64,000 bases of DNA from an uncultured Clostridia bacterium (GTDB lineage Bacteria > Bacillota > Clostridia > Christensenellales > UBA3700). Of this stretch, positions 21,538 to 64,000 are shown in pieces; the stretch's first letter is position 1, and each line of letters opens with the position of its first letter. Location: assembly GCA_947246685.1 (NCBI GenBank), contig CAMXSN010000006.1:3898-67897 (forward strand), read 5' to 3'. The position numbers and the translations under genes were made by a program. The notes beneath the pieces are model-generated. The model did no database searches. It saw only the letters and a program-made list of their open reading frames with translations, and had not been told where the DNA came from.

Positions 21538-21547
21538 TGTCGTCTCC

Positions 21548-22267
21548 TCAGATTATGTCGTCTATATTGATATCCCCGTCGGAACCCTTGTCCGCGCCCG
21601 TATCGGGAGCCGCGGAAGGAGCGGCGGACGAATCTTCTGCAGTTTCCCCGTTCGCCTCTGCGCGGTATTTCGCAAGCTGCTTGGAAGCCTCGTTCTGATA
21701 GCCTGCCATGACGTCGTTGCTTTTCCCGTCCGATTTTGCCATTGACTTTTTGAGCTTTTTATCGAATCCGCTCATTGCCACCAACATAGCGTTGGCAATA
21801 TTGCCGTATCCGTTGACCATATCCATAATGGCTTTCATACGGTTACTGTTCATCTTGACGAATTTTTTGATCTTGCGTCTCTGTTTCATCCTGCCTCTTG
21901 CAGAATACTGCTTGTAATTGTCAAGGCTCATCATCTCGTCGATGAATTTGAACGTATCGTCCATTATGTTGATTGTCTGCGACAGCACCTGCATTGCCTC
22001 TTTCATGGAAAACATCATTCCCACGACGTTCTGCAAGCTGAAAGTAACTGTGTAAAACATCGTCAGCACTCTGGTGTTGAAATGATCGGCGCCGTATTGA
22101 CGCTCGCTCTCAACGACTTTGCGCGCCAGATTTTCCACGGATTTCTCCAATTCGGATTTCTTACCCTCTAAAATCTTACCGTCGAGTTTTCTGAGATTTT
22201 CTTTTTGCATTTCGCTGTATGGATTGGAGAGCCTTTCTCCTCTCTCTCTGTTTCTTTCTCTTGCCAT
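21548..22267 (-). CDS. 239-aa helical protein with basic N-terminus and acidic disordered C-tail ending DGDINIDDII (ESCRT-III/PspA-like architecture, unproven)
   Basis: RBS GGGAGAA. N-terminus MARERNRERGER, long predicted helices, then Ala/Pro/Asp-rich tail SSAAPSAAPDTGADKGSDGDINIDDII. No sequence motif I can assign to a family. Confidence 0.7.
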   Translation of the reverse strand: MARERNRERGERLSNPYSEMQKENLRKLDGKILEGKKSELEKSVENLARKVVESERQYGADHFNTRVLTMFYTVTFSLQNVVGMMFSMKEAMQVLSQTINIMDDTFKFIDEMMSLDNYKQYSARGRMKQRRKIKKFVKMNSNRMKAIMDMVNGYGNIANAMLVAMSGFDKKLKKSMAKSDGKSNDVMAGYQNEASKQLAKYRAEANGETAEDSSAAPSAAPDTGADKGSDGDINIDDII

Positions 22268-22282
22268 AATTTTTTCTCCCGA

Positions 22283-23797
22283 TTAAAACTGATTGTTGAT
22301 GATGTCATTTATCTGTATGTCGCCGTCCGCCTCTTCTAAATCTTCAGACTGCTCTTGCTTATCCGCCGCGTCTTCTTTGGGGGCGGAAGTCTTTCTTGCA
22401 AATTTACGGCGTCTTTCTTCCATTCTCTTTCTCATCTCTTCTTTTTCTTTTGCTCTGTCCTCGCTCTGCTTGTTTGCAGTTACGTATGTTTGCTCTTTCT
22501 CCATAAGTTTGTTGATAGTTGCAAACCGCTCGTCGGTCATAGCCATGTGTTTTGTCTGCAGAGCAACGTTTTCCATAATATTGTCATAATAACTTATAGC
22601 GAGCGTAATATCCGACTCGGACGCGCCGTAACTCAATATATCAAGAAACTGCCTGAAATCTATATATGCGAACATAGAATAAAACAAGTTGGGTTCTATC
22701 TGCTGATACATAGTGTAGATATGTTGCAATCTCTTGAATTTGGAGAGCAGTCTGCGCATAGCGAGCATATTATTGTTCATCATATTGATACTAGCCCTAT
22801 ATTGCTCTCTTTCCATCTCTCTGATTTCCATATCCTGTTCGAGCATGGTGATTTGAGTATCCGCTTCTTCTTCCATTATTTCGCCTTCGTCGAGAGCCGC
22901 TATTACGTCGGATATATTCTTCTGAATTTCCGCGATATCGGCGTTGATCTGTTTGACTTTCTCGTATGCGTCGTTCTGTACGCTGAACTGCTCTTCAAAT
23001 GATGCCAATCTTGCAAAGAACGCGTCGCCTTTTTCTTTGACGCTCGCAATCTTTGAGAATCCCGAGAATACGTCTTCCTGATATTTGACGATATCTTTAT
23101 CCTTTGCCTGATTTCTCTTATTGACCGCCTTGGTCAGTTCGCACCATTTGTCAGCCTCGTCCAGAGCCTGTCTGAGATGGTCGTTGACGGCGTCGAATAT
23201 CATATTCCTGCCTACGTAATCTCTCCACGCGAACAGACCGTAGGAGCTGTCGCCGAGCAAATTTGCGGCGGCGTCCGCAGCGTCCAACGACGAATTGTCA
23301 AACACGCCGTCAACTTTCTCTCTCAATTCTTTGAGCATATCTTTGGACGCGATAAGAATGCCTTTCTTGTATTCGCTCTTTTCCTCGTAAATCACGTTGT
23401 CTATTCCCATCATAGAATCGTCGATATATTTCAATACTTCTTTCTTGATGTCTGCCATATTCTTTTCTCCTTTTCCCAATTTTATCTTTTTGAAAATCTG
23501 TTCTTTTTTTTCTCTGTATCCGTCAAGTTTCAGCGCCGCGTTGTATTTTGAGAGCAGCGTAGCCATTTCCGTCAGCTCGAAAATAGCGTTTTTGAGATTG
23601 CCGTCGAATCCCTTGTTGATCCCTTCTCGCAAAAGCGACTCGATATCTTCTCTTATTTCGTCGGAAAAATCTTGACAGCGATTGCTGTCGTAACCGTTGT
23701 ATTCTATATCCTTAAACTTTCTTGCGTAACTTATTTTGTTGTCTTCGAGTATACCGACAAGCTTATCCAGCCTTATCAATTCTTCTCCTCCTCGCAT
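22283..23797 (-). CDS. 504-aa coiled-coil protein with acidic C-tail ending DGDIQINDIINNQF
   Basis: All-helical, charge-rich sequence. The likely true start is TTG 23779, preceded by GAGGAGGAG and overlapping the upstream TGA as TTGA. The ATG at 23797 is the track start. Confidence 0.7.
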   Translation of the reverse strand: MRGGEELIRLDKLVGILEDNKISYARKFKDIEYNGYDSNRCQDFSDEIREDIESLLREGINKGFDGNLKNAIFELTEMATLLSKYNAALKLDGYREKKEQIFKKIKLGKGEKNMADIKKEVLKYIDDSMMGIDNVIYEEKSEYKKGILIASKDMLKELREKVDGVFDNSSLDAADAAANLLGDSSYGLFAWRDYVGRNMIFDAVNDHLRQALDEADKWCELTKAVNKRNQAKDKDIVKYQEDVFSGFSKIASVKEKGDAFFARLASFEEQFSVQNDAYEKVKQINADIAEIQKNISDVIAALDEGEIMEEEADTQITMLEQDMEIREMEREQYRASINMMNNNMLAMRRLLSKFKRLQHIYTMYQQIEPNLFYSMFAYIDFRQFLDILSYGASESDITLAISYYDNIMENVALQTKHMAMTDERFATINKLMEKEQTYVTANKQSEDRAKEKEEMRKRMEERRRKFARKTSAPKEDAADKQEQSEDLEEADGDIQINDIINNQF

Positions 23798-24924
23798 ACG
23801 TCGGAGACGAATTTATCCGTCTCTTTTTTGGACGTTCTGCCTTTCTCCGAATATTTATAAAAATCGTCGTCGTAAAAAACGCACGAATTGTATCTGCCCG
23901 CTTTTATAAGCCGCTTAATATCCGCGTTGCCGTTGTCTTCCAAGCATTTGGCTATGCCGGCAATGGTTCTTTTTTTGAGATATTTATGTCCGCCGCGCGC
24001 ATTTACGAAACACATATAAACTCCGCTGTCGGGACAGTCGCTCACGTACTGCGCCACGGCGTTGGAATTCTTAAGCTCGTAAAATTTGCCGTCGATCTCT
24101 TTGTCGTCGTATGCTTTTGCCATTTTAAGACGCAGATCTCTGCCTATGCTTTCAAGCACGGAAAAGCCGTTGTCCTCCTCGGAAAACAGACGCACGCACT
24201 CTTCTTTTGAAAGTTTGAAAATGCCGAAAACAGGAGCGCGCTCCTCGTCCGTACAACTGCGCAATGTGGCAAAAGCCACGCTTGCCGCGTCCTCGTCCTC
24301 CGCCCGTTCGCCGTATAACAGATCAAATTTATCGTAATCTCCTCCGAGATCCGTTATCTTCTCTGCCAAAGCCGCGCGCAGTTCGTCAAGACTCTCATAT
24401 CCGTCGAATTGTCTCTTGACAGCGATCTCGCGCGGAACGTTTTTTAACATATCTATCAAATATCCTGCGCACTGCAGTTTGATATCCGTCAGTTCGTCGA
24501 CGTAACGGTCGTCTCCTTCGGGAGTGTGCACGCCTCTATGAACGTTGAAAAGCACGGCTTTGTAATAAAAATACGCCACGCGCCATCTCTCGGCGCTGCC
24601 CGTATTGAAATCCACGTAGCCCCTGTCATAGTAATACCCCATACGCATAAGCGCTGAAGGATGAAACATAAACGCCGCTTCATAACACAGATTGACCGCT
24701 TTATCGAGATATTTGAATCTCGTCCTCTTGTCTTCGTTGGAAGACGTGAGCCATTTGAAATAATATTCCTCGGAGCGAACGAACAGCTCTCTGTTGAGCG
24801 CATTGATCTCCAGCTCCGTGTCCGTATCGGGGAATACGTCCTTTTTGCAATGCGGACAGCACCACCTGCCGTCATACAGCTCGAGCGGTCTGTCTATATC
24901 TTGATTGCAATTTCCGCATTTCAT
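23776..24924 (-). CDS. 382-aa protein with N-terminal Zn-ribbon, one Sel1/TPR-like repeat and an unknown C-terminal domain
   Basis: RBS AAGGAG. MKCGNCNQ...CCPHCKK is a four-Cys ribbon. AAFMFHPSALMRMGYYYDRGYVDFNTGSAERWRVAYFYYKAV fits the Sel1 repeat pattern. Confidence 0.65.
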   Translation of the reverse strand: MKCGNCNQDIDRPLELYDGRWCCPHCKKDVFPDTDTELEINALNRELFVRSEEYYFKWLTSSNEDKRTRFKYLDKAVNLCYEAAFMFHPSALMRMGYYYDRGYVDFNTGSAERWRVAYFYYKAVLFNVHRGVHTPEGDDRYVDELTDIKLQCAGYLIDMLKNVPREIAVKRQFDGYESLDELRAALAEKITDLGGDYDKFDLLYGERAEDEDAASVAFATLRSCTDEERAPVFGIFKLSKEECVRLFSEEDNGFSVLESIGRDLRLKMAKAYDDKEIDGKFYELKNSNAVAQYVSDCPDSGVYMCFVNARGGHKYLKKRTIAGIAKCLEDNGNADIKRLIKAGRYNSCVFYDDDFYKYSEKGRTSKKETDKFVSDVCEEEKN

Positions 24925-24938
24925 ACTGTTATCTCCTT

Positions 24939-27900
24939 TTAAGACGCCTTTCGCTCGATCTTGAAATCAATAAGCGTGTTTGTGAATTCATAATTAACCG
25001 ACGATACCGATGCCGAGACCGAATAATTGCCTACCGCGGTCGGCGCGCTCGCAAGCAGCCTGCCCTTGGAATCGTAATACGCATATCCGTTTAACTTGAT
25101 ATCCGAAGAATACTCTTTGCCGTCCTTGACTATCGTAGGAATGCCGGACGCGGTGTTCCACTGCAACGCGACGCTCTTTTTATTGATGATAAAATCGCAC
25201 GATTCATATTTAACGTCATAATTATTTATTACGCCGCTCTCTGGCAAGCTCAATGTGAGAGTGTATTTGCCGGCGTTTTTAGCGCTTATCGCACTGCCGC
25301 CGTATATAGGCGTCCCGAAATCTTCTTTCTTATCCTTTGTTGCAAGACCGCTCAACGTAAAGCCGAAATTGCCGCCGGTCTTGCCGTCGTAAGTCTTTGC
25401 CGACGCAACGGCTTTCGCCACAAGAGTACGTTTGGTTATCTCAAAATCCTTGGAGTCGTCGCCGATAAGTTGATAATTATCCGCATAAACGCCGCCCAAA
25501 GCGACCTGCGCCGTATACTTGCCGACGTTGAGTTGGGCGGAAGTATACTTCAGCGAAGAGATCATTGCCGTTTGCTGATTTGCAACCGCGTTTGTTATAG
25601 AGGACACTCTTGCGTTGTGATTCTGACCGTCGTAAACAAACTTGGAGTATTTCTCGTCCCATACAACTCGTACTTGGCGTTTAACTATCGAATAGGACGT
25701 TTCAACGGGCGCGTCAAGTCTGTAATTGCCATCAATAGGAAGATCCGCGCCGACGGTATAGCCGTCTCCGACGTTGACGTTGTTTTCATACCCGTAATAA
25801 TCTATCGGCACGGGCTTATCTCTGTCCAGCGCGCCTATTACCATCAAGTCGGGGTGCTGCGCGACGCCGGCGTAAACCAATTGAACGTTCTCCGCCCATT
25901 TTGCCGTCACGGTAGCCCTTTCGATGACGTAATCGCAGTTGCGATTGACGATCGTATAATTGCCGTTTGCGGTGCTGACTCTAGCGACGTAAGCGCCTGC
26001 GTCAATACCGGCGCCCGTCACGTCGGTTTGAATTTGACCGTCTTTTGCTATACCTGTTACGGTAGCGTTAGGCGCCTTGTAACTTCCGTCGTATACGAAT
26101 TGAGTATTAGACCACACCGCCTCAACTTCTATGGGAAGTATCTCGTAGGCAAAACTTCCCCCCGAGCCTATTTTGTAACAGTCTGCTCCGACCGTAAGTT
26201 CTATATTCGCCGTGTATCTGCCGGCATCGGAATTGATATGATTGGATATAGCGTATTCGATACCGTCGCCTTCAATCAACTGCGACGTATCGTAATCTAC
26301 GTAAACTTCTTTATTCTCGCCGTCGTATACGTCCTGATCAAAATCCGTCCAGACAAAATCCAAAGCCTTTTTATCAACCGACACGTCTATGACGAAAGTC
26401 TCTTGCGAACTGAGAGAGGTTTCTTCGGAAGTCGCTACGACTATGACGGAAAACGCTCCGCTCATGCTCGGAAGAACTCTGTCGTATATCATTTGAGCGC
26501 CGCTCTGCATAAACGCGTCTTTGCAATACCATGAATACGACAAATCATATCCCGACTTAGGCGCCTTTGCCGCCGCCGACAGAATCAACGTATCGCCGTA
26601 AACGTACTTCTCTGCGTTGGGCGTAATTTTGCCGTCATAAGGTTTTTTCAGCGTCCATTCCGGTTCGACTGCCGTCGCGTTGTAATATCCGTTCGCATTG
26701 CGTCTGAGGTAATCGGCGAGACTTGAAAATTCGTTGACGCCGCATTTCCATTTGATATCGAATCCATCTCTCGACAAATCTTTGAGGAGCTCGTCCGCGC
26801 GGCTGAGAGCCGTCAATCTGTAATTGCGTATACTGCCGCCTGCCTCTATCGTCTTGATCGAATCGTCAAAACTGAACTTGGTATCGTTGCCGTCGCCTAT
26901 CTCCACGGCGAAAACTCTCTCGAAATTAACTTGGGCTTTAACGACGTTGTTAACTATGCTTACGCCTTGCAGATTTCCTTGAGACGTGACTATTTCTTTG
27001 AGCATATAGCCGTTGTTTTGATAATTCCAATACAAATCTTCGTCGTCGGACTTATCAGAATATTTTACGTAATCGACTTTGTCGCCGCAGAACGACAAAT
27101 CAAACTTATTGCCTTTTTTGCCTATCCACGTGGGAATATAGCTGTTGTCGGTCAATATCAAATCGTCTGCGTTGTAGGCAAACGTAACGTACGCTTCGTC
27201 GTCGGCAAGCCCCGTAGGATAAACGTTGTTTGCCAATACCACGCTCTGTCTTTCCGAATATAATTCCTGTCTGTAACTGTCGATGAGCTTTTTGTTTACG
27301 CCCAATTTCAACGTGTCGTTCAACTCGCCTAAATAATATTTCTCGTCGTACAGACGCATCCTTTTTTCTCCGACTATTTCGACGCTGGCTATGGATGCGT
27401 CGGCAAACAGAGCGTAACTGACAGCCGTTACGTCCTTGCCGTTGAAAGTTAGAGGTACGCGCACCTTATCGCTTCTGCCCTCGAGCACTCCGTCGGCAAA
27501 ATACGAATCGCTGGCTTGGTCGTATTTGAAAGCCAAACTCCTGTATTCGTCTACGTAACCCTGTCCGAGAAAACCGTAATCCATTATATATACCGAATAC
27601 GCTCCCGATATCGCCACCGTTAACGCGCTCATGGCTATAACGGTCGCTTTGACCCACGGTTTTTTCTTGAGTATCGGATAAAGCGCCGCTATCGTAACGG
27701 CAACAAAACTGACCGCATGCGCAACTGCGAACAAAGCCGTCGCCGCGCCTGTCGAATAGGTCAGCTCCCCGCCGCTCATAACTCCCAACGTAGAACACGC
27801 GAATATAAACGTCAAAGCAAGATAAACTATCCACACCGTGAGCGAATATCTAAAACGGAAATTGGTAAACACTATGCCCACGATAAACAAAGCGTCAAAG

Positions 27901-28097
27901 ATCAGATTGAACACTGGCAGCACGATAAAACGCGCGTCGAAGCCCGATACAGCACACACTATCAGCAACACGAGGTCGCACACCGCCGCGGTAATGGAAG
28001 CGATGAGCAAAAATAGCTTGCTGCCGCCGAACCGCTTGCGGTTGGCGGAAGAATAATCTATATTTTCGCTGCCTGAATATAAGCCGTTTCTATTCAT
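24939..28097 (-). CDS. 1052-aa polytopic membrane protein with a large extracytoplasmic region ending in six MBG/YDG-type repeats
   Basis: RBS AAGGAGG and an ATGA overlap with the upstream gene. Five hydrophobic helices lie in aa ~29-170. The last 477 aa form six ~75-85-aa repeats, each with xVxW...(V/T)YDG...G(K/R)Y...NY...(F/Y)xIxK. Confidence 0.75.
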   Translation of the reverse strand: MNRNGLYSGSENIDYSSANRKRFGGSKLFLLIASITAAVCDLVLLIVCAVSGFDARFIVLPVFNLIFDALFIVGIVFTNFRFRYSLTVWIVYLALTFIFACSTLGVMSGGELTYSTGAATALFAVAHAVSFVAVTIAALYPILKKKPWVKATVIAMSALTVAISGAYSVYIMDYGFLGQGYVDEYRSLAFKYDQASDSYFADGVLEGRSDKVRVPLTFNGKDVTAVSYALFADASIASVEIVGEKRMRLYDEKYYLGELNDTLKLGVNKKLIDSYRQELYSERQSVVLANNVYPTGLADDEAYVTFAYNADDLILTDNSYIPTWIGKKGNKFDLSFCGDKVDYVKYSDKSDDEDLYWNYQNNGYMLKEIVTSQGNLQGVSIVNNVVKAQVNFERVFAVEIGDGNDTKFSFDDSIKTIEAGGSIRNYRLTALSRADELLKDLSRDGFDIKWKCGVNEFSSLADYLRRNANGYYNATAVEPEWTLKKPYDGKITPNAEKYVYGDTLILSAAAKAPKSGYDLSYSWYCKDAFMQSGAQMIYDRVLPSMSGAFSVIVVATSEETSLSSQETFVIDVSVDKKALDFVWTDFDQDVYDGENKEVYVDYDTSQLIEGDGIEYAISNHINSDAGRYTANIELTVGADCYKIGSGGSFAYEILPIEVEAVWSNTQFVYDGSYKAPNATVTGIAKDGQIQTDVTGAGIDAGAYVARVSTANGNYTIVNRNCDYVIERATVTAKWAENVQLVYAGVAQHPDLMVIGALDRDKPVPIDYYGYENNVNVGDGYTVGADLPIDGNYRLDAPVETSYSIVKRQVRVVWDEKYSKFVYDGQNHNARVSSITNAVANQQTAMISSLKYTSAQLNVGKYTAQVALGGVYADNYQLIGDDSKDFEITKRTLVAKAVASAKTYDGKTGGNFGFTLSGLATKDKKEDFGTPIYGGSAISAKNAGKYTLTLSLPESGVINNYDVKYESCDFIINKKSVALQWNTASGIPTIVKDGKEYSSDIKLNGYAYYDSKGRLLASAPTAVGNYSVSASVSSVNYEFTNTLIDFKIERKAS

Positions 28098-29752
28098 TTC
28101 GCTGCCTCCTTGTCGGAATTGCCCTTAGGCGCGCTGAGATAACCGCTGCTCTTGGCGGTATCTTTATTAAATATAAGCACAGATTCGTCGATCATAAACA
28201 TAATGCAATCTTCGTCTTCCTTGCAATATTTCTTTTTGTTGAGACTGCCTATTCTCTTGACCAAAGACAGCATTCCCGAATATTTGCGATATAGCTTATT
28301 ACCCTGTTTGTATTCCGCGTCGTCTATCGCGTCTATGCCCAATTTGGTTATTTTGCAGAAATCGCAAACGTAATCGGTCGAATTAGTTTCGGAGTAAAAC
28401 GATCTTCCGCAACATGAACAACGCGCAATTTTATCTTTAGGCACCAACGTCATTCTGTCTCTGACAAAGGCAAGATTCTTAGTATATCTAGCTATTCCGT
28501 CTTCGCAGACGTATACGACCTCGGGATGCGGACAGCGTTTGCATTTTCTCACTCCGCCGTCAAGCACGGCAGTATCGTCCTCGCAAACGTATTTGACGCA
28601 TCTGCCGGCAAGTCTCGCGTTCTCCGAGCAACTAATCCTGAGCAAGTGCGAAGTAAACGTTCCGCCGGATTTTATCTGTCTTATTATCTCTTCGCTAAGA
28701 CCGAGCCCTTGATGGGCAGGATTTATCAACGCTGTTTTCTCTACTCCGTCAAATACGTATTTGATCTTATTGAACTCGATAAGAGTAGATTTTTTGCGGC
28801 AGCTGTTGCAATAAAGACTCAACCTGCCTCCTATGCCCAATATCGCTTTGAGCGCGACCTTGCCGTCTAGTCTTACGTCGTAGTTATCTTTTCTCCACTG
28901 AAAATGCAGGACGTTGAGAAGAGACAGATTTAGGCACGTCAAATCAACGTTGTCGTTGGGTCCCTTCTCCACCATAATTCCCACGGCGTTCTCGTCTCTG
29001 CCGTCGGCTAACACGACGTAATCCGACAAATCCGCTCCTTGAGAATTACCGTCGGGATATACGAGTTTGTCCAAAGCATTGACGACGGTATCGGTAAGTT
29101 CCGCGCTGTTTTGCATAAGTTCATCTTCTTCCCTTTCCGAATCGAACGTGGAAAGATACGAGTTGATGACTTCGGCTTCTTCCTTGCCGTAAGGAAGTAT
29201 TTTTTTACCTACTTTTCTAAAAAACACTTTGCCTAGCACCGGCACCGCTTCGCCCGTTCCGTCGGTGATCTCCAACCTCAACGAGGCTCCGTAAACGTCT
29301 TCCAAACTCTCCGACTCGTCGCCGCGTCTAATATCGAATACGTAATTATCAAAGAAGCTCGATAGCACGTTGTTTATCAGCGCACAATGACTTTCTATCA
29401 ACTCGTTGGATATTACGTGCCTTCTGGGGCTGTATTCGACGATAGAATAATTGCGGTGAAAATGTTCCTTGACCGACTCGACGAACATAAGCCATTCGGC
29501 GGTGTCGTTTTTGACGCTCTCGCCTCTGAACATTCCAAACCATGACGCCCCGTTGTCGCCCATTACCGCATTGAACGAACCGTCGTCGCGCGCAGCCGCG
29601 CCGCGAGCCAATATAAATTCATGCGAGGGAGTAACTATCCTGTCTGCGTCCGCCGACAAAACCGATCCTTCTTTTATGCAATTTTCGCGGTACAATTTCA
29701 CCACGCTGTCAAACGTCTTGCCGTATTCGCTTCCAATATAAATCTTAGCCAT
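28094..29752 (-). CDS. 552-aa hypothetical protein with several CxxC Zn-ribbon-like pairs in the C-terminal half
   Basis: RBS GGAGGCGGT. CNSCRKK, CKRCPHPE and CSCCGRSF...CDFC. No other recognisable motif. Confidence 0.65.
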   Translation of the reverse strand: MAKIYIGSEYGKTFDSVVKLYRENCIKEGSVLSADADRIVTPSHEFILARGAAARDDGSFNAVMGDNGASWFGMFRGESVKNDTAEWLMFVESVKEHFHRNYSIVEYSPRRHVISNELIESHCALINNVLSSFFDNYVFDIRRGDESESLEDVYGASLRLEITDGTGEAVPVLGKVFFRKVGKKILPYGKEEAEVINSYLSTFDSEREEDELMQNSAELTDTVVNALDKLVYPDGNSQGADLSDYVVLADGRDENAVGIMVEKGPNDNVDLTCLNLSLLNVLHFQWRKDNYDVRLDGKVALKAILGIGGRLSLYCNSCRKKSTLIEFNKIKYVFDGVEKTALINPAHQGLGLSEEIIRQIKSGGTFTSHLLRISCSENARLAGRCVKYVCEDDTAVLDGGVRKCKRCPHPEVVYVCEDGIARYTKNLAFVRDRMTLVPKDKIARCSCCGRSFYSETNSTDYVCDFCKITKLGIDAIDDAEYKQGNKLYRKYSGMLSLVKRIGSLNKKKYCKEDEDCIMFMIDESVLIFNKDTAKSSGYLSAPKGNSDKEAAK

Positions 29753-29763
29753 ACCGCCTCCGC

Positions 29764-32571
29764 TCAGTTATCCATGGACAGAATTTCTTTTATATCCGCC
29801 ACTTTGTCAGATTCTTTCCTTAGATTGTTGCAGAAAGACTCGCCGTTGTCGTGTTTGAAATCCCACGACGCCTTGATATACGCCGCAAACGTCCTTGCAA
29901 TCACGGGATATAGATAACCTCTTTCGTGATTTTGTTCGCACTTGGGACAACGCGCAATCCATTTCTCGTCAAACGATATTACGTGAGGTCTGGGAGAACA
30001 CTGCGAATAATCGCACGATCCGCACAGTTCAACGCTGGCTTTACCTACGCCGTACCTGCACTTCTGCGGACATGACGAACGGCTGGAACAGCTTGCGCAC
30101 AGACTCTTGAGTTCAACTGCGGAAATATTGCGATTGAGCGCATAAGCGTTGAGCACGCTGCACTTACCTTTGAGCTCGCTCTTGAATCTCTGACAGTGCA
30201 ACATCGAGCATATCTTGGAACAGTAATAATCTCTGTCGCCTTTATCTCCGCTGCTGCACAGCGATCCTCTGTCCGTATCCGTCTTGGATATACACGTGTA
30301 TCCGCCGTCGCCCACGCTTCTGCCGAATACCGAACCGCACGTGCCGCACTTGAATTCGTACACGTTTATCTCTTCCATAACCGTGCCTCGGGGATCATCC
30401 TGAATACACTGCCTTTTTGCTATACAGAAAAGATTGTTTTTCTTCTTGCGCGCATCGTATTCTTCTTTTGTATAAAGCGCCACTTTGCCGCAAGCGGGAC
30501 ATCTGAGCGCAACCATACGCTCGTTGTTACTGCCCGCGATAATCGTCGCGTCGCCGCTGTTGCTGGAAAGCAATCCTATACTGTTGAAGTACGCAAGAGC
30601 AAAACCTTCGAGCTTATTCATATCTGCAAACGAATATATCTTGACGTCGCTAGACTGTCCGAGACGGAATATTCTGCCTATTCTCTGATCCATAGACAAC
30701 GGATCGGGCGTGACCTGGAAGTTGATGATGATTCTGCTGTCCTGCAAGTTTACGCCCTCGGTAAACGACGGGTCGGTAACGAGTAACACCGCGTCTTCTT
30801 TGGATGTAAATTCGTCTATAACCTGTCTTTTGTTATCGTCTCTGCCTATTAATATCCTTGATGAAAATTCGCCGTCCGCGGCAAGTTCCGCACCGACTTT
30901 TTCCCATTGACGGTACCCTTTGCTTGTCTTGGGCAAGTCGTAATCGAAAAATACCAACGCTCTCTCGCCCGGATGTTCGCGCAGAACGGATTTCATCTCC
31001 TCGAATTTATACGCAAACGTATCTTTATCAGCCGCGGTGAAGATAAATTTGTTGTCGCATTCTCCCGCGGCTTTTCTTGAGAATTGCTCCCAATAAAATT
31101 TAAGCGAATTTTTCTTTTCAAAAACTTTTTCGTCCCCGAAAGATTTTAGTCCGCCCAAAATGTTGGGCACCAATATCTCAGCATATTTCTCCTGAGCGTC
31201 GCCGTGCAAGGAAATTTCCTGCGCATAGTCTTTCAGCGAATATGCTCTGCCGTCGACGTTGAGCGCTCGATTCCCGTTGATTACGTCCAGACTTGCTTCC
31301 ATGTCGCAACCGTCTCCGTATTTGAACCTTATTATCTTAGGAGCGTTTTCTTTGACAGGGAAGAAATATCTGTTGAAAACGAATCTGGTCTTGGTAAGTT
31401 CGTTGGGCTGACGGATCATTATGGTGCGCAACACGCCGTTGTGATAAGCGCTCGCTACTCTTTTGAGCACCTCGGAGCGTATTGGACCGCTGTCTTTAAG
31501 AAACTCTTCTCTTAGCAATTGTTTTTCGCCCTGAGTATAAGATTGAAATTTCTCGTATTCTCCCTTTGCTTTCAAAAAAGCTTCAAACTGAGCTGAGTAA
31601 TTGTTGTCTACTTCAAACTTCTTAACCGCGGTGATAAACTCTGCCACGGTATTCGCGCCTCTGCACACGTTCTGCTTGTAATAGAGTTTCTCTTTTCTGT
31701 ATTCGTCAGTGCGCTCTTTATCCTCTTTTATATCGAAATCGTCGGGATTGCCGCCCTTACATCTGATAAAATACCACAGTCTGAACATCTTTTCCAGATT
31801 GCCGGAATGAGGCGTAGCGGAAAGAAGCACGCAGTAAGTGCTGTTGGCTTTTTTCTTTGTCTGCATAAGCAAAGACAGTAGTTTCATAGCCTTTGCATAT
31901 CTGCCTTCTTCCGCGCACAGATGATGAGCCTCGTCGACGACAACGACGTCGAATAACACGTTTTTAATCGCGCTTTCTCGCCAGTTGACGAAATCCTCCG
32001 CCTTGACGATAAACGGCTTTGTCGGTCTGACGGTCGCTCCGTCCGACAAAGTCTCGCACTCGCCGAACTCCGCGTCGGCGACTCCGACAAGCACGCCTTT
32101 GCCCAGTCCGAATTTATTTTCAAGCACGTCTATCCAGCTGTCGTAAACCTGCGACGGCACGACCAACAACAGCGATTTCATCTTACCTCTGACGGCAAGC
32201 TCGCTCAGCACTGCGCACGCCTCAAAAGTTTTGCCGCTGCCCACAACGTCCGCGAGCAGACCGAAGCCGCGCAGCTCCTTGAGAAAATGCGTCGCCGCAA
32301 GTTGCTGATGTCTCAATATTACCTGATTGCTGTTGACGCTCCTATGCACATGCGATTTGGTTATTCCGTAATCTCCGCCGTCGGATTCGTATACTTCCGG
32401 CGCTATTTTCAACGCGGCGAAATCGTCGTATCTGTCCAGTTCTTCGGCGCAGTGGGTAAGCTCGGCTATCCGCGCGTCGAAGGGGCGTATCTCACCTGCA
32501 ATCTTCGACCTCTGAATATCCCTGTCAAAAGCTCCGTCCGTACATTTAAGAGTAAATCTTTTCTTTTTCAT
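29764..32571 (-). CDS. SNF2-family (RapA/HepA-like) helicase/translocase with ~200-aa Cys-rich C-terminal module
   Basis: Start ATG 32571, 5 nt after GGAGGGG; the track start 32589 is a TTG. Motifs LLADVVGSGKTFEA (I), VVVDEAHH (II), LLSATPHSG (III), TEGVNLQ and QRIGRIFRLGQ (VI). The tail holds about 21 Cys, including CPAC, CGTC, CASC, CGSC and CPKC. Confidence 0.85.
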   Translation of the reverse strand: MKKKRFTLKCTDGAFDRDIQRSKIAGEIRPFDARIAELTHCAEELDRYDDFAALKIAPEVYESDGGDYGITKSHVHRSVNSNQVILRHQQLAATHFLKELRGFGLLADVVGSGKTFEACAVLSELAVRGKMKSLLLVVPSQVYDSWIDVLENKFGLGKGVLVGVADAEFGECETLSDGATVRPTKPFIVKAEDFVNWRESAIKNVLFDVVVVDEAHHLCAEEGRYAKAMKLLSLLMQTKKKANSTYCVLLSATPHSGNLEKMFRLWYFIRCKGGNPDDFDIKEDKERTDEYRKEKLYYKQNVCRGANTVAEFITAVKKFEVDNNYSAQFEAFLKAKGEYEKFQSYTQGEKQLLREEFLKDSGPIRSEVLKRVASAYHNGVLRTIMIRQPNELTKTRFVFNRYFFPVKENAPKIIRFKYGDGCDMEASLDVINGNRALNVDGRAYSLKDYAQEISLHGDAQEKYAEILVPNILGGLKSFGDEKVFEKKNSLKFYWEQFSRKAAGECDNKFIFTAADKDTFAYKFEEMKSVLREHPGERALVFFDYDLPKTSKGYRQWEKVGAELAADGEFSSRILIGRDDNKRQVIDEFTSKEDAVLLVTDPSFTEGVNLQDSRIIINFQVTPDPLSMDQRIGRIFRLGQSSDVKIYSFADMNKLEGFALAYFNSIGLLSSNSGDATIIAGSNNERMVALRCPACGKVALYTKEEYDARKKKNNLFCIAKRQCIQDDPRGTVMEEINVYEFKCGTCGSVFGRSVGDGGYTCISKTDTDRGSLCSSGDKGDRDYYCSKICSMLHCQRFKSELKGKCSVLNAYALNRNISAVELKSLCASCSSRSSCPQKCRYGVGKASVELCGSCDYSQCSPRPHVISFDEKWIARCPKCEQNHERGYLYPVIARTFAAYIKASWDFKHDNGESFCNNLRKESDKVADIKEILSMDN

Positions 32572-32585
32572 TATCCCCTCCGCCG

Positions 32586-34538
32586 TCAATCGGCTCCTTC
32601 CACGTCGAATTCCTCGACGCCTTGGAATTGAAGAACTATGTCTTTGTATCTGGCAAACTTAACGTTTGTCGGGTCGTCGGCTTTTCTTACGGCTATGGTG
32701 TCGTAAGCTCCGTTCTTGGATACGTTGTTGCGTATGAAAGGCTGCGCTCTGCCGTCTCCGTCGATCTTAACTCCCTCAAGGAAGTATAACACGCCTTTTA
32801 TCTGCACCGGTATGGGCGATTTTTTGCCTTCTTTGCAATAATAAAACAGTATCTTGCCTTTGCTCTTACCGCCCGACACCACTCGCAGACCTATCTTCGT
32901 CTGCATCTTCACGCGCTGTTCGGAGTCAGGTTCGCCTATCACGTATACTCCCGACGATTCCGTCGTAGAGAAAATCTCCTCATTGTCTACCGACCCCGAC
33001 CATCTGTCCATATATTTGAGGCTGGATTCGGTATAATACGTTCCTCCGTCGGGAGGAAGTATCTGACCTCTTTTGAGGAAAATGTCCAGTATCTTATAGT
33101 ATTTATCTCCGCGCTTGCGATATTGCCAAGTACCGTAAGACAATGCTACCGCCGTCTTGATCTCGTAATTATTGAGCGCAACGATAGCGCCGCCTACCGC
33201 GGGCGCAAACAAAGAATCTTCGTATGAAAGTATCCTGAATCCGTCGTCTCTGTTCTCGTAATCGTCAAACGTGACGACGTCGACGTTCAATCCCGCTTTG
33301 CGTAGTTTGGAGCGCAGATAACCTATCAGCCCGTAGGTCTCCGTAACTCCTCCCGACAAGAGAAGTTTGTCCACGTCTTTATTGATACTTCTGTTCAACT
33401 CCTCGATAATATAATCCGCTATCTTAGCCGCCACGCCGCAATCGCCGTCGATACCCACCGCCTTGCAAAAGTCATCTCTCGTCAACATTCTCTGCACCGT
33501 CACGTCTCTATAGAGCGATATAGGCGCTCCGTCTGGAAACACGTTGTCGTAAGTTGCGTCGGGAAGAGACAGCGCCGTCTTGACCTTTTTGATCTCGGTC
33601 ATAAACAAAAACTGTTTAGAATGCAATCCCCGCTCGGCGATATATCCGTCTTCTCCCGACGGCGGCGCGCCCGGAGTCTCTCTCGCCCCGATGCTGTCTT
33701 CTATATAATCTCTTAACGCAATGTCAAAATCGTTGCCGCCTATCTCCATAGGCTCGTTGTGACCGTCAACGCCGTCCACAAGCACGCTCTTGACCTTTCC
33801 GCCCGAAAGACTGAGTTTTGCAACGGAAATATCCTCTTCGCCCATATCGACGATAATAACGCCCTCTCCGCCGTCCAAAATACCTCTGTGAAATGCAAAA
33901 AGTCCCAGCGCTCTCGTAGATGACATTACCTTCTTAACATTAGAGCCGACCGAACGCTCTACCAAACGCGTCAACTCCTCTATGTATTCCGCGCCCGCTT
34001 TGGCAGGATAAATCAGCGAATAATCGACGCTGTCGAATGCTAGATTTCTCTGCGCTTGCAATCTCTCTATCGCAGGCAAAACAGTCTTAGAAAATAGATA
34101 ATCAAAAAACTCTTCGCACACCTGCATCGGCGTCCTGTCTGCGCAAAAAGTCATGTCGAGATCTTTGGCAAGCATCAGATTTTCGGAAATCTTGCGTTTT
34201 GTCGGAAAATAAAATTTGGGGAAATCTCTGCCTTCTCGATAACATACGCGATTGCTATCGCATACGGCTTTATCCGATCTTTTCAGAAGCAAAGACAGCA
34301 GCGTTTTGATCTTGACGACAGTAATAAAAGGTCTGTCGGTGCCTTTATACGCTTCGTCTCCGAACAGCCATCTGCCGTTGTCCTCGTCGTAATACGCTAT
34401 CGCCGACACGACCGCGCTGCCCGTGACTTCCCTGGGCGCCAACTTTCCGTATACCGCCTTATTGGATTCTTTATAGGCAAAAGCAACCTTTACTTTGTCG
34501 CTGCCGACGTCGATTGCAACCTCTAAATTACCTTGCAT
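32586..34538 (-). CDS. divergent Hsp70-like (actin-fold) ATPase with beta-rich C-terminal domain, no lid
   Basis: RBS AAAGGAG. Motifs AIDVGSDKVKVAF (phosphate-1), IIVDMGEEDISV (phosphate-2), EIGGNDFD, LLLSGGVTETYGL and PAVGGAIVA. The C-terminal ~190 aa resemble an SBD-beta (TAVALSYGTW...ILPP...). No EEVD. Confidence 0.8.
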   Translation of the reverse strand: MQGNLEVAIDVGSDKVKVAFAYKESNKAVYGKLAPREVTGSAVVSAIAYYDEDNGRWLFGDEAYKGTDRPFITVVKIKTLLSLLLKRSDKAVCDSNRVCYREGRDFPKFYFPTKRKISENLMLAKDLDMTFCADRTPMQVCEEFFDYLFSKTVLPAIERLQAQRNLAFDSVDYSLIYPAKAGAEYIEELTRLVERSVGSNVKKVMSSTRALGLFAFHRGILDGGEGVIIVDMGEEDISVAKLSLSGGKVKSVLVDGVDGHNEPMEIGGNDFDIALRDYIEDSIGARETPGAPPSGEDGYIAERGLHSKQFLFMTEIKKVKTALSLPDATYDNVFPDGAPISLYRDVTVQRMLTRDDFCKAVGIDGDCGVAAKIADYIIEELNRSINKDVDKLLLSGGVTETYGLIGYLRSKLRKAGLNVDVVTFDDYENRDDGFRILSYEDSLFAPAVGGAIVALNNYEIKTAVALSYGTWQYRKRGDKYYKILDIFLKRGQILPPDGGTYYTESSLKYMDRWSGSVDNEEIFSTTESSGVYVIGEPDSEQRVKMQTKIGLRVVSGGKSKGKILFYYCKEGKKSPIPVQIKGVLYFLEGVKIDGDGRAQPFIRNNVSKNGAYDTIAVRKADDPTNVKFARYKDIVLQFQGVEEFDVEGAD

Positions 34539-61018: not shown

Positions 61019-61092
61019 TGGAGCAGGTGACGGGAATCGGACCCGCGCTGGCGGCTTGGGAAGCCGCTGTTCTGCCATTGAACTACACCTGC
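61019..61092 (-). tRNA. tRNA-Gly (anticodon CCC), CCA encoded
   Basis: Hand-folded 74-nt cloverleaf. The 7-bp acceptor GCAGGTG/CACCTGC is followed by the D arm GTTC-AATGGCA-GAAC. The anticodon arm is GCGGC-TTCCCAA-GCCGC and the T arm is GCGGG-TCCGATT-CCCGT. The 3' end is the discriminator T plus CCA. Confidence 0.9.
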
Positions 61093-61134: not shown

Positions 61135-62088
61135 TTACTTTTTGTCGTATTTGTAAAAGCCTTCGCCCGACGCCATACCGAGTTTTCCTTCGTCAATATA
61201 TTTTTTGAGCAGTTTTTCCATACCTTTGAAATTATACGGCGCCAAAAACGAAGGAATCTTGACGTACATCGCCACAATGTTGTAAGCCGTGGTCAGTCCT
61301 ACTGTATCTATAATACGGAACGGACCTTTTGGAGAGCCTGTGCCAAGCGTCCAAGCCTTGTCGATACTCTCGGGATCGGAAACTCCGTTGACGTATAGAT
61401 CAAGCCCCGAGAAAAGCAACGGCACCAACATAGAGTTGAGCAGATACCCTGACTTTTCTTTCCTCACAGGGAGCGCTATCATTCTGATATCCTTGGCAAA
61501 CGACATTATCAAATCGAAATACTTCTGCTCTGTCTTTGCCTGCGACATTATCTCGGCGGTGTTGTTTTTCCATATACTATTTGCAAAATGTAGCGAAAGA
61601 TATCTGTCGGCTCTGCCGGTGTATTTTGCAAATTTAGACGGGAGTAAAGTCGACGAATTGGTAACTACCACTGTCTTTTGCGGCAACAACGGCGCAAGAG
61701 CTTTATAGAAAGCTATCTTGTCGTCGGCGTTTTCCGCCATGGATTCGATTACTAAATCCGCATCCGCTACGGCCTTGCCCATATCCAACTCGAGCTCTAT
61801 GGACTCGTAAGCTTTCTGCGCCTTTGCCAGACAATCGTCCTTATCAAAAGCGTCGTAATCGGCAATGCCTCTCGCCCAATTGGCAGGCGTCTGACCTTCG
61901 GGAGTAGCCATAAGTTCGATCGTCTCGTCATAAGTTTTTTTCAGCGCGTCCAATTTTGGACGGGTACGTGATATGCTCCCCTCGCTTCTCAGCCATATAG
62001 TCACGTCAAAACCGCAATATGCCGCTTGAAAAGCTATCTGACTGCCGAGAACGCCGCCGCCTGCTACCACAACTTTTTTGATTTCCAT
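61135..62088 (-). CDS. 3-hydroxyacyl-CoA dehydrogenase family protein
   Basis: RBS GGGGGAG. Rossmann motif VVVAGGGVLGSQIA, plus 3HCDH-type N- and C-domains. Confidence 0.75.
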   Translation of the reverse strand: MEIKKVVVAGGGVLGSQIAFQAAYCGFDVTIWLRSEGSISRTRPKLDALKKTYDETIELMATPEGQTPANWARGIADYDAFDKDDCLAKAQKAYESIELELDMGKAVADADLVIESMAENADDKIAFYKALAPLLPQKTVVVTNSSTLLPSKFAKYTGRADRYLSLHFANSIWKNNTAEIMSQAKTEQKYFDLIMSFAKDIRMIALPVRKEKSGYLLNSMLVPLLFSGLDLYVNGVSDPESIDKAWTLGTGSPKGPFRIIDTVGLTTAYNIVAMYVKIPSFLAPYNFKGMEKLLKKYIDEGKLGMASGEGFYKYDKK

Positions 62089-62261
62089 TTTCTCCCCCTG
62101 ACAGTATCGATTTTTGAGCTATGCGTCTTGATTATTCGCAAATATTTTCAACCGATACCCTATATTAATATATTATCACTTTATATCGGATAAAATCAAT
62201 ACTTTTATGATTTTAACAAGCTTTTTTGGGCAGAATAATGTCTCATACTACTAAAAAATAA

Positions 62262-62290
62262 TTGCATTAGGCAAAAATATAGTATATAAT
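62262..62290 (+). promoter_or_regulatory. sigma-A promoter of the retron transcript
   Basis: TTGCAT - 17 nt - TATAAT. The predicted +1 falls at ~62297-62298, exactly where the a1 repeat begins. Confidence 0.6.
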
Positions 62291-62297
62291 AATAAAC

Positions 62298-62454
62298 GAG
62301 ATTCTAGATATTTAACCATAATTATATTTTGGTTAGCTTCGATTTTATATGCGAAGCGAGTAAAATTGATTCCATTCTATGAGGATGTTTTAACATCTTT
62401 TTGCTTGGAATCTCAAAGATGTTAAAACATCCTCTAGCGTATATGTAGAATCTC
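62298..62454 (+). ncRNA. retron non-coding RNA (msr-msd)
   Basis: Terminal inverted repeats gagattcta (62298-62306) and tagaatctc (62445-62453), with an unpaired G at 62307 as candidate branching G. Two small msr hairpins (62313-62335, 62336-62357). A perfect 20-bp msd hairpin gaggatgttttaacatcttt / aaagatgttaaaacatcctc (62381-62434). Located directly upstream of effector plus RT. Confidence 0.75.
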
Positions 62455-62481
62455 CATAATAAATAATTTAAGGATTAATAA

Positions 62482-63375
62482 ATGAATATCCTGGAAGATA
62501 AATTTCTTACAAACGTTTGCGAACAATTAAAAACCCAAAAAAGAATAAATCGCAAATCAAACGTAATGCCATTAAAATTATATTTTATTTGTGGGAAAGA
62601 ATTTGATAAAAGCAAACGCGAAAATAGATCTTTACTAAGAGATTTAATAGAAAAGTCCGATATTAATGCCAAATGTATATTTGCAGAAGAGATGTATTTT
62701 GATGACTTAGAATATAATCTTTTGCAATTTGAAAATGTTTTGGCTAATATTAGTGAAAAAATCATTATCATTCTAGAAAGTCCCGGCACTTTCTGTGAAT
62801 TAGGTGCTTTTGTAAATGTTGAAGAATCAAAAAGCAAATTAATTGTAATAAATGAAGACAATCCTAACTATGATAATTCTTTTATTACTAAAGGTCCACT
62901 TCAGCTAGTAAATAAAGAAAACAGTCTAGTTAAATTTCAAGGCGAACTCATAAAACATCCTGAAGTTAAAAAACTAATCAAAAATTTAGCCAATAATAGT
63001 ATAACCCCATTAAAACCAAACCTCTCAAGTGAAATTGAACTAAAATCGTTAATTTGTGAATTATTGCATTTATTTTATATGTTCTGCCCTATTTGCAAAT
63101 TTGAATTAGAAAAACTTTATAAAAATATATATGAAATAAAAGAAATAAAAATTAAAGAATCCAACAAGCATGGCATGGATTCGATAGATAAAGTTATTAA
63201 ATTAATGATAAAATTAGATTTAATACGTTATAGATGTGGATACTATATACTCTCAGATAATTTATCCATAACCAAACCACTTTTCAAAAACAATGATGAA
63301 GGCAAAATTCGTACACAATATCTCGCGAGATTATACAAAAAGGATAAAAATAGGTTAAAATGTTATGATAATTGA
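62482..63375 (+). CDS. retron effector, nucleoside 2-deoxyribosyltransferase-like (NDT) domain plus C-terminal winged-helix-like domain (St85/Sen2 RcaT-type)
   Basis: 297 aa, AT-rich, RBS AAGGA. IIIILESPGTFCELGAF fits the NDT-like ExPG...ELG core. C-terminal IDKVIKLMIKLDLIRYRCGYYIL looks like a wHTH. Position msr/msd - effector - RT as in type II retrons. Confidence 0.65.
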   Translation: MNILEDKFLTNVCEQLKTQKRINRKSNVMPLKLYFICGKEFDKSKRENRSLLRDLIEKSDINAKCIFAEEMYFDDLEYNLLQFENVLANISEKIIIILESPGTFCELGAFVNVEESKSKLIVINEDNPNYDNSFITKGPLQLVNKENSLVKFQGELIKHPEVKKLIKNLANNSITPLKPNLSSEIELKSLICELLHLFYMFCPICKFELEKLYKNIYEIKEIKIKESNKHGMDSIDKVIKLMIKLDLIRYRCGYYILSDNLSITKPLFKNNDEGKIRTQYLARLYKKDKNRLKCYDN

Positions 63376-64000
63376 TAATATTTCAAAATCTTTAATGATA
63401 GATAAAAATTTGATAATATCTATGTCTAAAAATAATAACAAATACAAGTCATATTATATTGGCAACAACGGACGCCAACGTTTGATTCAACATCCATCAA
63501 AAGAAATTAAGTTGTTACAATACTGGTTAGTAAATAATTTGCTTAATAAGTTACCTTGTTCAAAATATGCAACTGGATATGAACCAGGATGCTCTATAAT
63601 AAGAAATGCAGCAATACATGCTGATAATAAATATATATTACATACGGATATTAAAGATTTTTTTAATTCTATCACAGTAAACATGGTAGAATCAATTTTA
63701 TCAAAATCTAATCTAAATTTAATACAAGAAGATATTAATTTTATTATAGATGTAGTATTCTATAAATCTAAAATATTTCCGACCGGCAGTGTGTCTTCCC
63801 CCTGCCTTTCAAATAGAGTTATGTATAATTTTGATTTAGAACTTAAAAGTGAACTGGACACTTTTTATGGACTACAAGAATTCAAATTTACAAGATATGC
63901 TGATGATATAATAATTTCGAGCAATTATAAAATTCAAACAAATATAGTAGATATTATAAAAAACTTATTAAATAAATATGGCTTTGAAATTAATAAAAAT
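63365..64000 (+). CDS. retron-type reverse transcriptase, 3' end beyond the right window edge
   Basis: Not in the ORF track (no stop). Hand translation from ATG 63365, which overlaps the effector stop by 11 nt, gives ...GRQRLIQHPSKEIKLLQYWL...GYEPGCSIIRNAAIH...ILHTDIKDFFNSI...PTGSVSSPCLSN...FTRYADDIIIS. These are RT motifs 1-5 with the retron-style RYADD box. Confidence 0.85.
   Translation, partial: MIIDNISKSLMIDKNLIISMSKNNNKYKSYYIGNNGRQRLIQHPSKEIKLLQYWLVNNLLNKLPCSKYATGYEPGCSIIRNAAIHADNKYILHTDIKDFFNSITVNMVESILSKSNLNLIQEDINFIIDVVFYKSKIFPTGSVSSPCLSNRVMYNFDLELKSELDTFYGLQEFKFTRYADDIIISSNYKIQTNIVDIIKNLLNKYGFEINKN

Follow-up and report, generated by a model that had tools for sequence, protein, structure and literature searches.

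A putative three-part type II-A retron in a low-GC islet of an uncultured Clostridia genome

Layout of the locus and its two proteins

We analysed the right-hand end of a 64,000-nucleotide stretch of DNA (the window) from an uncultured Clostridia bacterium (GenBank assembly GCA_947246685.1, contig CAMXSN010000006.1), in which an earlier note, made from the letters alone, had placed a type II retron. Positions 61500–64000 were read directly and their open reading frames (ORFs) listed. The four elements that the note had described, a promoter, a structured non-coding RNA (ncRNA), an effector gene and a reverse transcriptase (RT) gene, all lie where it had put them. On the plus strand, a candidate sigma-70-type promoter (62262–62290) is followed by a 157-nt ncRNA of the msr-msd type (62298–62454), a gene for an effector of 297 residues (62482–63375) and the first 212 of the 305 codons of a retron RT gene (63365–64000). 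Very probably the locus is a type II-A retron of the St85/Sen2–Ec86 family with all three parts present, comprising one ncRNA and two genes in about 2 kb and transcribed as one unit from the 62262–62290 promoter. Judged by its sequence, the retron is genuine and belongs to a well-described class, to which it is a divergent yet ordinary addition.

The candidate promoter consists of a −35 element TTGCAT (62262–62267), a 17-nt spacer and a −10 element TATAAT (62285–62290); the predicted transcript start, about 7 nt past the −10 element, is the first base of the a1 arm of the ncRNA. A ribosome-binding site, AAGGA (62470–62474, plus strand), read from the sequence, lies 7 nt before the effector ATG. 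The RT ATG is at 63365 and the effector stop codon at 63373–63375, which gives the overlap of 11 nt reported previously. The RT frame is open to base 64000, again as reported, and is missing from the ORF list because the tool leaves out frames that run past the window edge. Extension of the contig, a check that had been proposed at the outset, recovered the full RT of 305 residues: the protein was taken from a 100-kb contig (L001) that is identical to the window over the last 3000 bases, and on which the gene continues to window-equivalent position 64282. The 2212 bases of the retron region are identical between L001 and a further contig, L004. An RT call of 295 residues on L004 was considered as a sequence variant and rejected, the DNA being identical and the two calls differing in start choice only (63395 versus 63365). 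The start at 63365 is favoured because the PADLOC profile aligns from residue 1 and because RT starts overlap or abut the effector stop in relatives.

The full RT falls within the St85 family of retron RTs. It scores 247.6 bits against the NCBIfam model retron_St85_RT ('retron St85 family RNA-directed DNA polymerase'; cut-off 235), and the PADLOC model RT_II-A comes first with E = 1.2e-70 (6.8e-55 for the fragment in the window), the top 25 PADLOC matches all being retron RT models. Two II-A models (236 and 203 bits) are followed by I-A (177) and III-A (176) in what is a profile ranking, not a phylogeny. The motifs HTDIKDFFNSI, SPCLSN and RYADD that had been picked out earlier are present, and the full protein carries NAAIH, RYADD and RKVTG; NAxxH and VTG are retron-specific RT motifs (Mestre et al. 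2020). Its best solved relative is the RT of retron Ec86 (E = 1.4e-33).

An RT of another class (group II intron maturase, diversity-generating retroelement (DGR), abortive infection (Abi) or UG/DRT), with the upstream hairpins coincidental, could draw on the Pfam RVT_1 core, which is common to all prokaryotic RTs, and on weak matches to group II intron, Drt3a, Drt2 and AbiA models. All of these matches lie below their cut-offs, however: 57.4 bits versus 300 for the group II intron model TIGR04416, 44.6 versus 200 for Drt3a, 38.6 versus 390 for Drt2 and 31.6 versus 250 for AbiA, whereas the retron St85 RT model is passed. Moreover, the NAxxH and VTG motifs are in place, the upstream RNA covaries (see below), no intron domains and no DGR template or variable repeats were seen, and an Rfam scan of 61900–64000 gave no group II intron match. 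A non-retron RT class is effectively refuted; the earlier note had named a group II intron, DGR or Abi/UG assignment by profile as the finding that would speak against a retron, and it is the retron models that rank first.

The effector likewise belongs to the St85 family. The 297-residue ORF, with the ESPG...ELG core described earlier, matches the PADLOC model NDT_II-A (nucleoside deoxyribosyltransferase-like, NDT-like) over residues 27–287 with E = 4.4e-35, and scores 131.4 bits against a cut-off of 100 on NCBIfam STM3845_fam, an equivalog model named 'retron St85 family effector protein'. A PDB search with a profile built from 29 homologues found only the Ec86 effector (E = 5e-32, residues 3–292), across both domains. 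The AlphaFold2 (AF2) model of the protein (predicted local distance difference test score 87.8, predicted TM-score 0.88) combines an alpha/beta N-domain of flavodoxin-like type with a C-terminal helix-helix-helix-beta-hairpin; in this model the C-terminal part fits a winged helix, in line with the original suggestion of a winged-helix-like C-terminus. Foldseek gave three significant matches, all of them effector chains of Retron-Eco1 (Ec86), with E from 6e-11 to 1e-9 and including the E106A inactive mutant. An effector lacking any likeness to the NDT fold would have argued against the retron assignment, by the earlier note's own account, and the likeness is seen both in the PADLOC match and in the best of these structural matches.

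ESPG (residues 99–102) and ELG (106–108) are invariant in the 29 homologues. The catalytic glutamate E106 is kept, within ESPGTFCELG; the structure 8qbl, of the E106A inactive Eco1 effector, reads ALG where the effector family has the invariant ELG. Residues invariant across the family are C37 and G38, E69, E84, E99, S100 and G102, E106, L107, G108, A109 and F110, and S133, F134, I135 and G138. Homologues number 83 at E up to 1e-5, the closest being 53–54% identical, and all carry PF28093. A local Pfam-A scan of the effector found no family and precomputed annotations give it PF28093 (STM3845), a discrepancy that looks like a difference in library version rather than a contradiction. With both proteins above the cut-offs of curated NCBI naming models, standard annotation would label the pair. 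The retron class proposed for the locus is borne out, with RT and effector both above curated St85-family cut-offs and the gene order as in Sen2.

The msr-msd RNA and its conservation

The ncRNA on the plus strand at 62298–62454 measures exactly 157 nt, the length estimated beforehand. The minimum free energy (MFE) of 62296–62460 is −57.1 kcal/mol as against −27.2 ± 3.5 kcal/mol for dinucleotide shuffles (z = −8.49), and none of 200 shuffles folds as well. The hallmarks of retron ncRNAs are present throughout 62298–62454: a1/a2 inverted repeats, an opposed pair of guanosines, msr hairpins and an msd hairpin. The a1 arm GAGATTCTA (62298–62306) pairs with the a2 arm TAGAATCTC (62446–62454) in a terminal stem of 9 bp, identified as an inverted repeat, in the folds and by covariation. 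Directly 3′ of a1 stands the candidate branching guanosine, G62307, which is unpaired and faces G62445 on the a2 side. Two opposing G residues are a hallmark of retron ncRNAs (Mestre et al. 2020). G62307 is part of a TTCTAG motif (columns 5–10 of alignment A2) and G62445 of a TGTAGA motif, both invariant in 10 of 10 loci, so that the two guanosines face each other at the stem's inner end. By its position, the 2′-OH of G62307 would prime reverse transcription. We take T62444 to be the first templated base, by analogy with the Ec86 msd sequence.

Between the two arms lie three hairpins. Stem-loop 1 of msr (62313–62335, TAACC.../...GGTTA) appears in the MFE folds, and every locus has a hairpin here, variable in sequence. 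Stem-loop 2 of msr (62336–62357; GCTTCG, a 10-nt loop and CGAAGC) is conserved and covarying (RNAalifold pairs 53–58/69–74). The msd hairpin (62377–62437), the predicted template for the stem of the multicopy single-stranded DNA (msDNA), has a perfect 20-bp stem, 62381–62400 with 62415–62434, plus 3 pairs. With the window sequence alone, the MFE favours a pairing of 62339–62347 with 62361–62369 over the conserved stem-loop 2; this alternative within 62339–62369, TCGATTTTA with TAAAATTGA, competes with the GCTTCG/CGAAGC pairing of 62336–62357. An Rfam scan of 61900–64000 at E up to 10 found no retron msr family, the long hairpin alone drawing spurious miRNA-like matches. No Rfam model detects the ncRNA, and ORF-only tracks overlook both unannotated retron ncRNAs of this kind and RT genes truncated by a sequence edge.

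The RNA was compared across ten loci, the window and nine related ones, the latter from five named genomes (Clostridia/Bacillota) and four metagenome contigs. All nine relatives have an element of 152–172 nt 5′ of the effector gene that is similarly folded, the common fold starting with a terminal stem whose a1 arm is followed by an unpaired G, after which come two hairpins and a long one. This long msd hairpin stands at the equivalent place in all nine, with unrelated sequence. MAFFT was unable to align the msd hairpins and covariation was scored for a1/a2 and msr stem-loop 2 only, a restriction that follows from the unrelated sequences. Pairing is kept in 96.7% of cells over the 15 pairs scored, as against 30–62% with the partners slid, and none of 500 shuffles reaches the observed values. 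Compensatory changes in a1/a2 are GAGGTTC/GAACCTC in two loci (L012 and L014) and GGGATTC/GAATCCC in a third (L009); these are genuine, whereas three further 'double-sided changes' in a1/a2 reflect a one-base register shift in another locus (L010) and are to be discounted. Stem-loop 2 of msr has two pairs with double-sided changes and 91.7% of cells paired, its compensatory change being GCTTCG/CGAAGC versus GCTTTG/CAAAGC. The GCTTCG type of this stem-loop occurs in a close group of relatives and a CTCTGAG type in a distant group.

The relatives resemble the window in gene content as well. Among five loci fetched by exact protein look-up, four have the order effector–RT with the genes overlapping or abutting; the contig of the fifth (L016) stops shortly after the effector gene. 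Uncharacterised St85-effector loci of Clostridia/Bacillota, from Coprococcus intestinihominis, Clostridium cibarium and Lachnospiraceae metagenome-assembled genomes among others, have the same gene order as the window and share with it the conserved ncRNA termini GAGATTCTAG ... ATGTAGAATCTC; their annotation at NCBI reads retron St85 family effector. They differ from it in effector sequence (33–54% identity) and in the sequence of the msd hairpin. The signature found in the ten loci, a1 (GAGATTCTA in the window), the opposed G/G and a2 (TAGAATCTC), could seed a covariance model for II-A retrons of Firmicutes.

Relation to known retrons and proposed mode of action

In gene order the locus resembles Retron-Sen2 (St85) of Salmonella Typhimurium. 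The Sen2 operon reads msrmsd-rcaT(STM3845)-rrtT and belongs to type II-A1, the Sen2/St85/Ec73 group (Mestre et al. 2020, Table 1). Both systems have the ncRNA first, then an effector with NDT-like and DNA-binding parts and then the RT directly 3′; the choice of Sen2/St85 as the system for comparison was thus apt. The window effector passes the model named after STM3845, and the window RT passes the St85 RT model; gene order and these family models are the grounds for the likeness to Sen2. The logic expected to be shared is that of an RT-msDNA antitoxin and an effector toxin. The two systems differ in host, Enterobacteria for Sen2 and probably a Gram-positive Clostridia bacterium here, and the ncRNA sequence of the window is unrelated. 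Sen2 depends on RNase H and on Exo VII for maturation, which is a feature of that system.

Profile scores lean to II-A1, an assignment that is soft. The defining marks of II-A1 are an RT of clade 1, an effector of NDT cluster 42_2 and the order ncRNA–NDT–RT; those of II-A3 are an RT of clade 9, NDT cluster 42_1 and the layout of Ec86. Both window proteins prefer the PADLOC models PDLC02928 and PDLC02939, whereas the proteins of Ec86, whose locus was retrieved from E. coli for the comparison, prefer PDLC02930 and PDLC02941; the model lengths of a third pair, PDLC02929 and PDLC02940, fit II-A2. The pair preferred by the window is assigned to II-A1 by elimination, since the other two are the Ec86-preferred and the II-A2-like. 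The models preferred by Ec86 come second for the window proteins, and for the effector the two NDT models are 11 bits apart (119.5 versus 108.6). On their best PADLOC models the window proteins score 119 and 236 bits, far less than a close member reaches (314 and 402 for Ec86 on its own models). The II-A2 layout, a frameshifted effector with a DNA-binding domain fused to the RT N terminus, is not what the window contains: a single 297-residue ORF has both effector domains, the RT of 305 residues is without an N-terminal extension, and the long model PDLC02940 matches through its RT part only. A tblastn search of phage genomes with the RT, seeking a labelled II-A1 reference such as phiR73, gave nothing above 33% identity. 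The best match in the phage collection (MT838926.1, 2706–3578; 33% identity over 96% of the length) is on an unannotated 4.7-kb 'Bacteriophage sp.' contig from human faeces, and possibly represents a retron carried by a fragment of a phage or satellite.

Retron-Eco1 (Ec86) of E. coli, a II-A3 system (7V9X, 7XJG, 8QBK/L/M), is the closest solved relative of both proteins. It shares the ESPG..ELGAF active-site motif, including the glutamate that is mutated in the inactive E106A structure, and its ncRNA has the same layout as that of the window, with an a1/a2 stem, opposed guanosines (TA-G ... G-TA), a pair of msr hairpins and a long msd hairpin. The retron could be of the Eco1/Ec86 kind (II-A3) and not of the Sen2 kind (II-A1), and would form filaments of RT, msDNA and effector that hydrolyse NAD+ upon methylation of the msDNA. 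We regard this as unlikely, if worth keeping in sight. Ec86 supplies the best PDB match for both proteins, the II-A3 ncRNA family is labelled 'Proteobacteria/Firmicutes' (Mestre et al. 2020) and the relatives here are Firmicutes, and the margin between the two NDT models is small. The PDB ranking, though, cannot discriminate between the two kinds, given that the only solved relatives are Ec86 components and the database is without a Sen2-type structure. Ec86 itself also prefers other PADLOC models than the window does, its order is effector–ncRNA–RT as against ncRNA–effector–RT, and the window RT is shorter at its N terminus. The msd of the window differs from that of Ec86, so the Dcm-site trigger of Ec86 need not apply.

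It is doubtful whether the gut-Clostridia clade forms a distinct II-A sub-lineage, although its effectors are at most 54% identical to that of the window and about 20–40% identical to that of Ec86, the termini GAGATTCTAG...ATGTAGAATCTC are invariant and the RT N terminus is short. Were this so, its members might do without Eco1-type filaments, and might respond to another phage cue or act on a substrate other than NAD+. Such a sub-lineage could also yield a compact AT-rich cassette of about 2 kb for recombineering in Clostridia.

Several observations weigh against reading the locus as a working, promoter-driven II-A retron with Eco1-like proteins. Formation of msDNA, toxicity and defence are here predictions from sequence. 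The Foldseek alignment to the Eco1 effector has, over the full length, a TM-score of 0.54 and a root mean square deviation of 6.6 Å, and true nucleoside 2-deoxyribosyltransferases are matched weakly (8pqs, E = 0.13). The effector is 39% identical to that of Ec86 in the NDT core only (119 residues), its C-terminal half not being alignable by BLASTP, and the RT is 30% identical to Ec86 RT. N-terminal to the conserved core, the window RT is also shorter than Ec86 RT by about 20 residues; part of the N-terminal helix used in Eco1 filament assembly may be missing, and an Eco1-type filament is not assured. Finally, a consensus promoter scan did not list the 62262–62290 site, whose −35 element fits at three of six positions, and promoter-like sites are frequent in the surrounding AT-rich DNA (21 found versus 15.4 expected). 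The promoter is the sole soft point among the elements described in the earlier note. It is nonetheless plausible by comparison, since TTGnnn-17-TATAAT/TAGAAT recurs 6–8 nt 5′ of a1 in five loci, namely the window and the four most closely related to it.

As a three-part II-A retron, the locus probably acts as an anti-phage toxin/antitoxin switch made up of the RT, the msDNA-forming RNA and the effector. In Sen2, RT and mature msDNA neutralise the RcaT toxin by direct interaction, and mutation of the branching G abolishes neutralisation. In Eco1, RT-msDNA assembles with an N-glycosidase effector into NAD(P)+-hydrolysing filaments, the trigger being phage Dcm methylase acting on the msDNA. By analogy, the 157-nt ncRNA would fold so that the a1/a2 stem brings G62307 beside the 3′ end of msd. 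The RT would bind the msr hairpins and prime cDNA from the 2′-OH of G62307, with copying beginning at about T62444, proceeding leftwards through the msd hairpin and halting in the linker 62358–62376. The product would be a branched msDNA of roughly 70–85 nt. Bound by RT and msDNA, the NDT-like/winged-helix effector would be held inactive, the complex serving as antitoxin, until freed by a phage product acting on the msDNA through modification, binding or degradation. The freed effector, through an N-glycosidase-type site (E106), would attack NAD(P)+ or a related nucleotide and the infected cell would be arrested (abortive infection). Such a scheme predicts that msDNA is made and serves in the antitoxin, and it also predicts the trigger, a substrate and a phenotype of defence; we infer both function and anti-phage activity from membership of the family. 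The locus would then add a further intact member to type II-A, found in an uncultured bacterium of gut or environmental origin that is probably clostridial, and it leaves current retron biology unchallenged. Compact AT-rich retrons of this sort are candidate genome-editing parts for Clostridia.

Genomic setting and origin

The retron lies in a sharply bounded low-GC islet. A gene for 3-hydroxyacyl-CoA dehydrogenase (3HCDH) of host-like GC, on the minus strand, ends at 62088, and from 62089 to the window end GC drops from about 47–54% to 24–32%, the element itself being about 25% (24–27%) in DNA of about 48%. Since a 25% GC cassette stands in 48% GC DNA, the contrast indicates that the retron was acquired horizontally from a low-GC Firmicute; all of the retron's named relatives belong to Clostridia/Bacillota. 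Next to the retron we saw neither an integrase or transposase nor a direct repeat flanking it, and the contrast documents the transfer of a minimal defence cassette with no mobility gene visible. On L001, 4 nt separate the RT stop from that of a convergent gene resembling pyridoxamine oxidase.

The place of insertion varies between species. In the nearest other species, whose fucose isomerase is 87% identical, the syntenic spot (5178–7000 of L022–L024: GCA_949746665.1, GCA_949088765.1 and ERZ14864645 NODE_64), between a Pyridox_ox_2 gene and the fucose operon, has neither retron nor 3HCDH gene, and the spot is therefore variable. The DNA of this sister species is just 65–72% identical, which leaves insertion boundaries and target-site repeats not definable. 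The arrangement of the window recurs: an exact-sequence look-up found the identical 297-residue effector encoded on 23 metagenome contigs, and in a look-up of 3HCDH, for which 23 contigs were read, the four places listed all have the retron adjacent to 3HCDH, with 19 similar places beyond those.

A rival reading is that of an inactive, recently transferred remnant, whose genes look intact but are silent or without function in a host of about 48% GC. The GC of 24–27% against flanks of about 47–54% implies foreign origin and codon mismatch, the −35 element is weak, and the retron is missing from the syntenic spot in the nearest other species found. Yet neither ORF is shortened or lacks any of the catalytic or family-invariant residues, the msd stem of the intact ncRNA is perfect, and a good ribosome-binding site is combined with translational coupling. 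The recurrence of the identical effector on 23 contigs, and of the retron beside 3HCDH at each of the four places listed among the 23 contigs read, also argues against decay. A remnant is accordingly very unlikely, and an intact II-A retron remains the favoured reading.

A tRNA-Gly (CCC) gene lies on the minus strand at 61019–61092, about 1.2 kb from the retron. It was considered as an integration site and is not supported as one, the 3HCDH gene of host GC lying between the tRNA gene and the low-GC islet.

Two further observations concern possible defence genes. In two relatives with 46–47% identity (L012, 230–4793, and L014, 1289–5897), the retron is flanked by genes of Fic toxin-antitoxin type, with or without a MazE-like gene, and by a T5orf172/ResIII protein of about 970 residues, neighbours that suggest a defence-island context. 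Elsewhere in the window, seven large co-directional ORFs occupy the minus strand at 20383–34538. One encodes an IetA-like AAA ATPase (20383–21537; PADLOC, E = 1.5e-31), and another a 941-residue SNF2/ResIII helicase resembling BrxH, DrmD and HmaA (29764–32589; E from 1e-30 to 1e-25). The other five proteins (382–1052 residues) gave no PADLOC match, nor did the four of them scanned against Pfam match any family there. The run may be an uncharacterised defence or helicase island.

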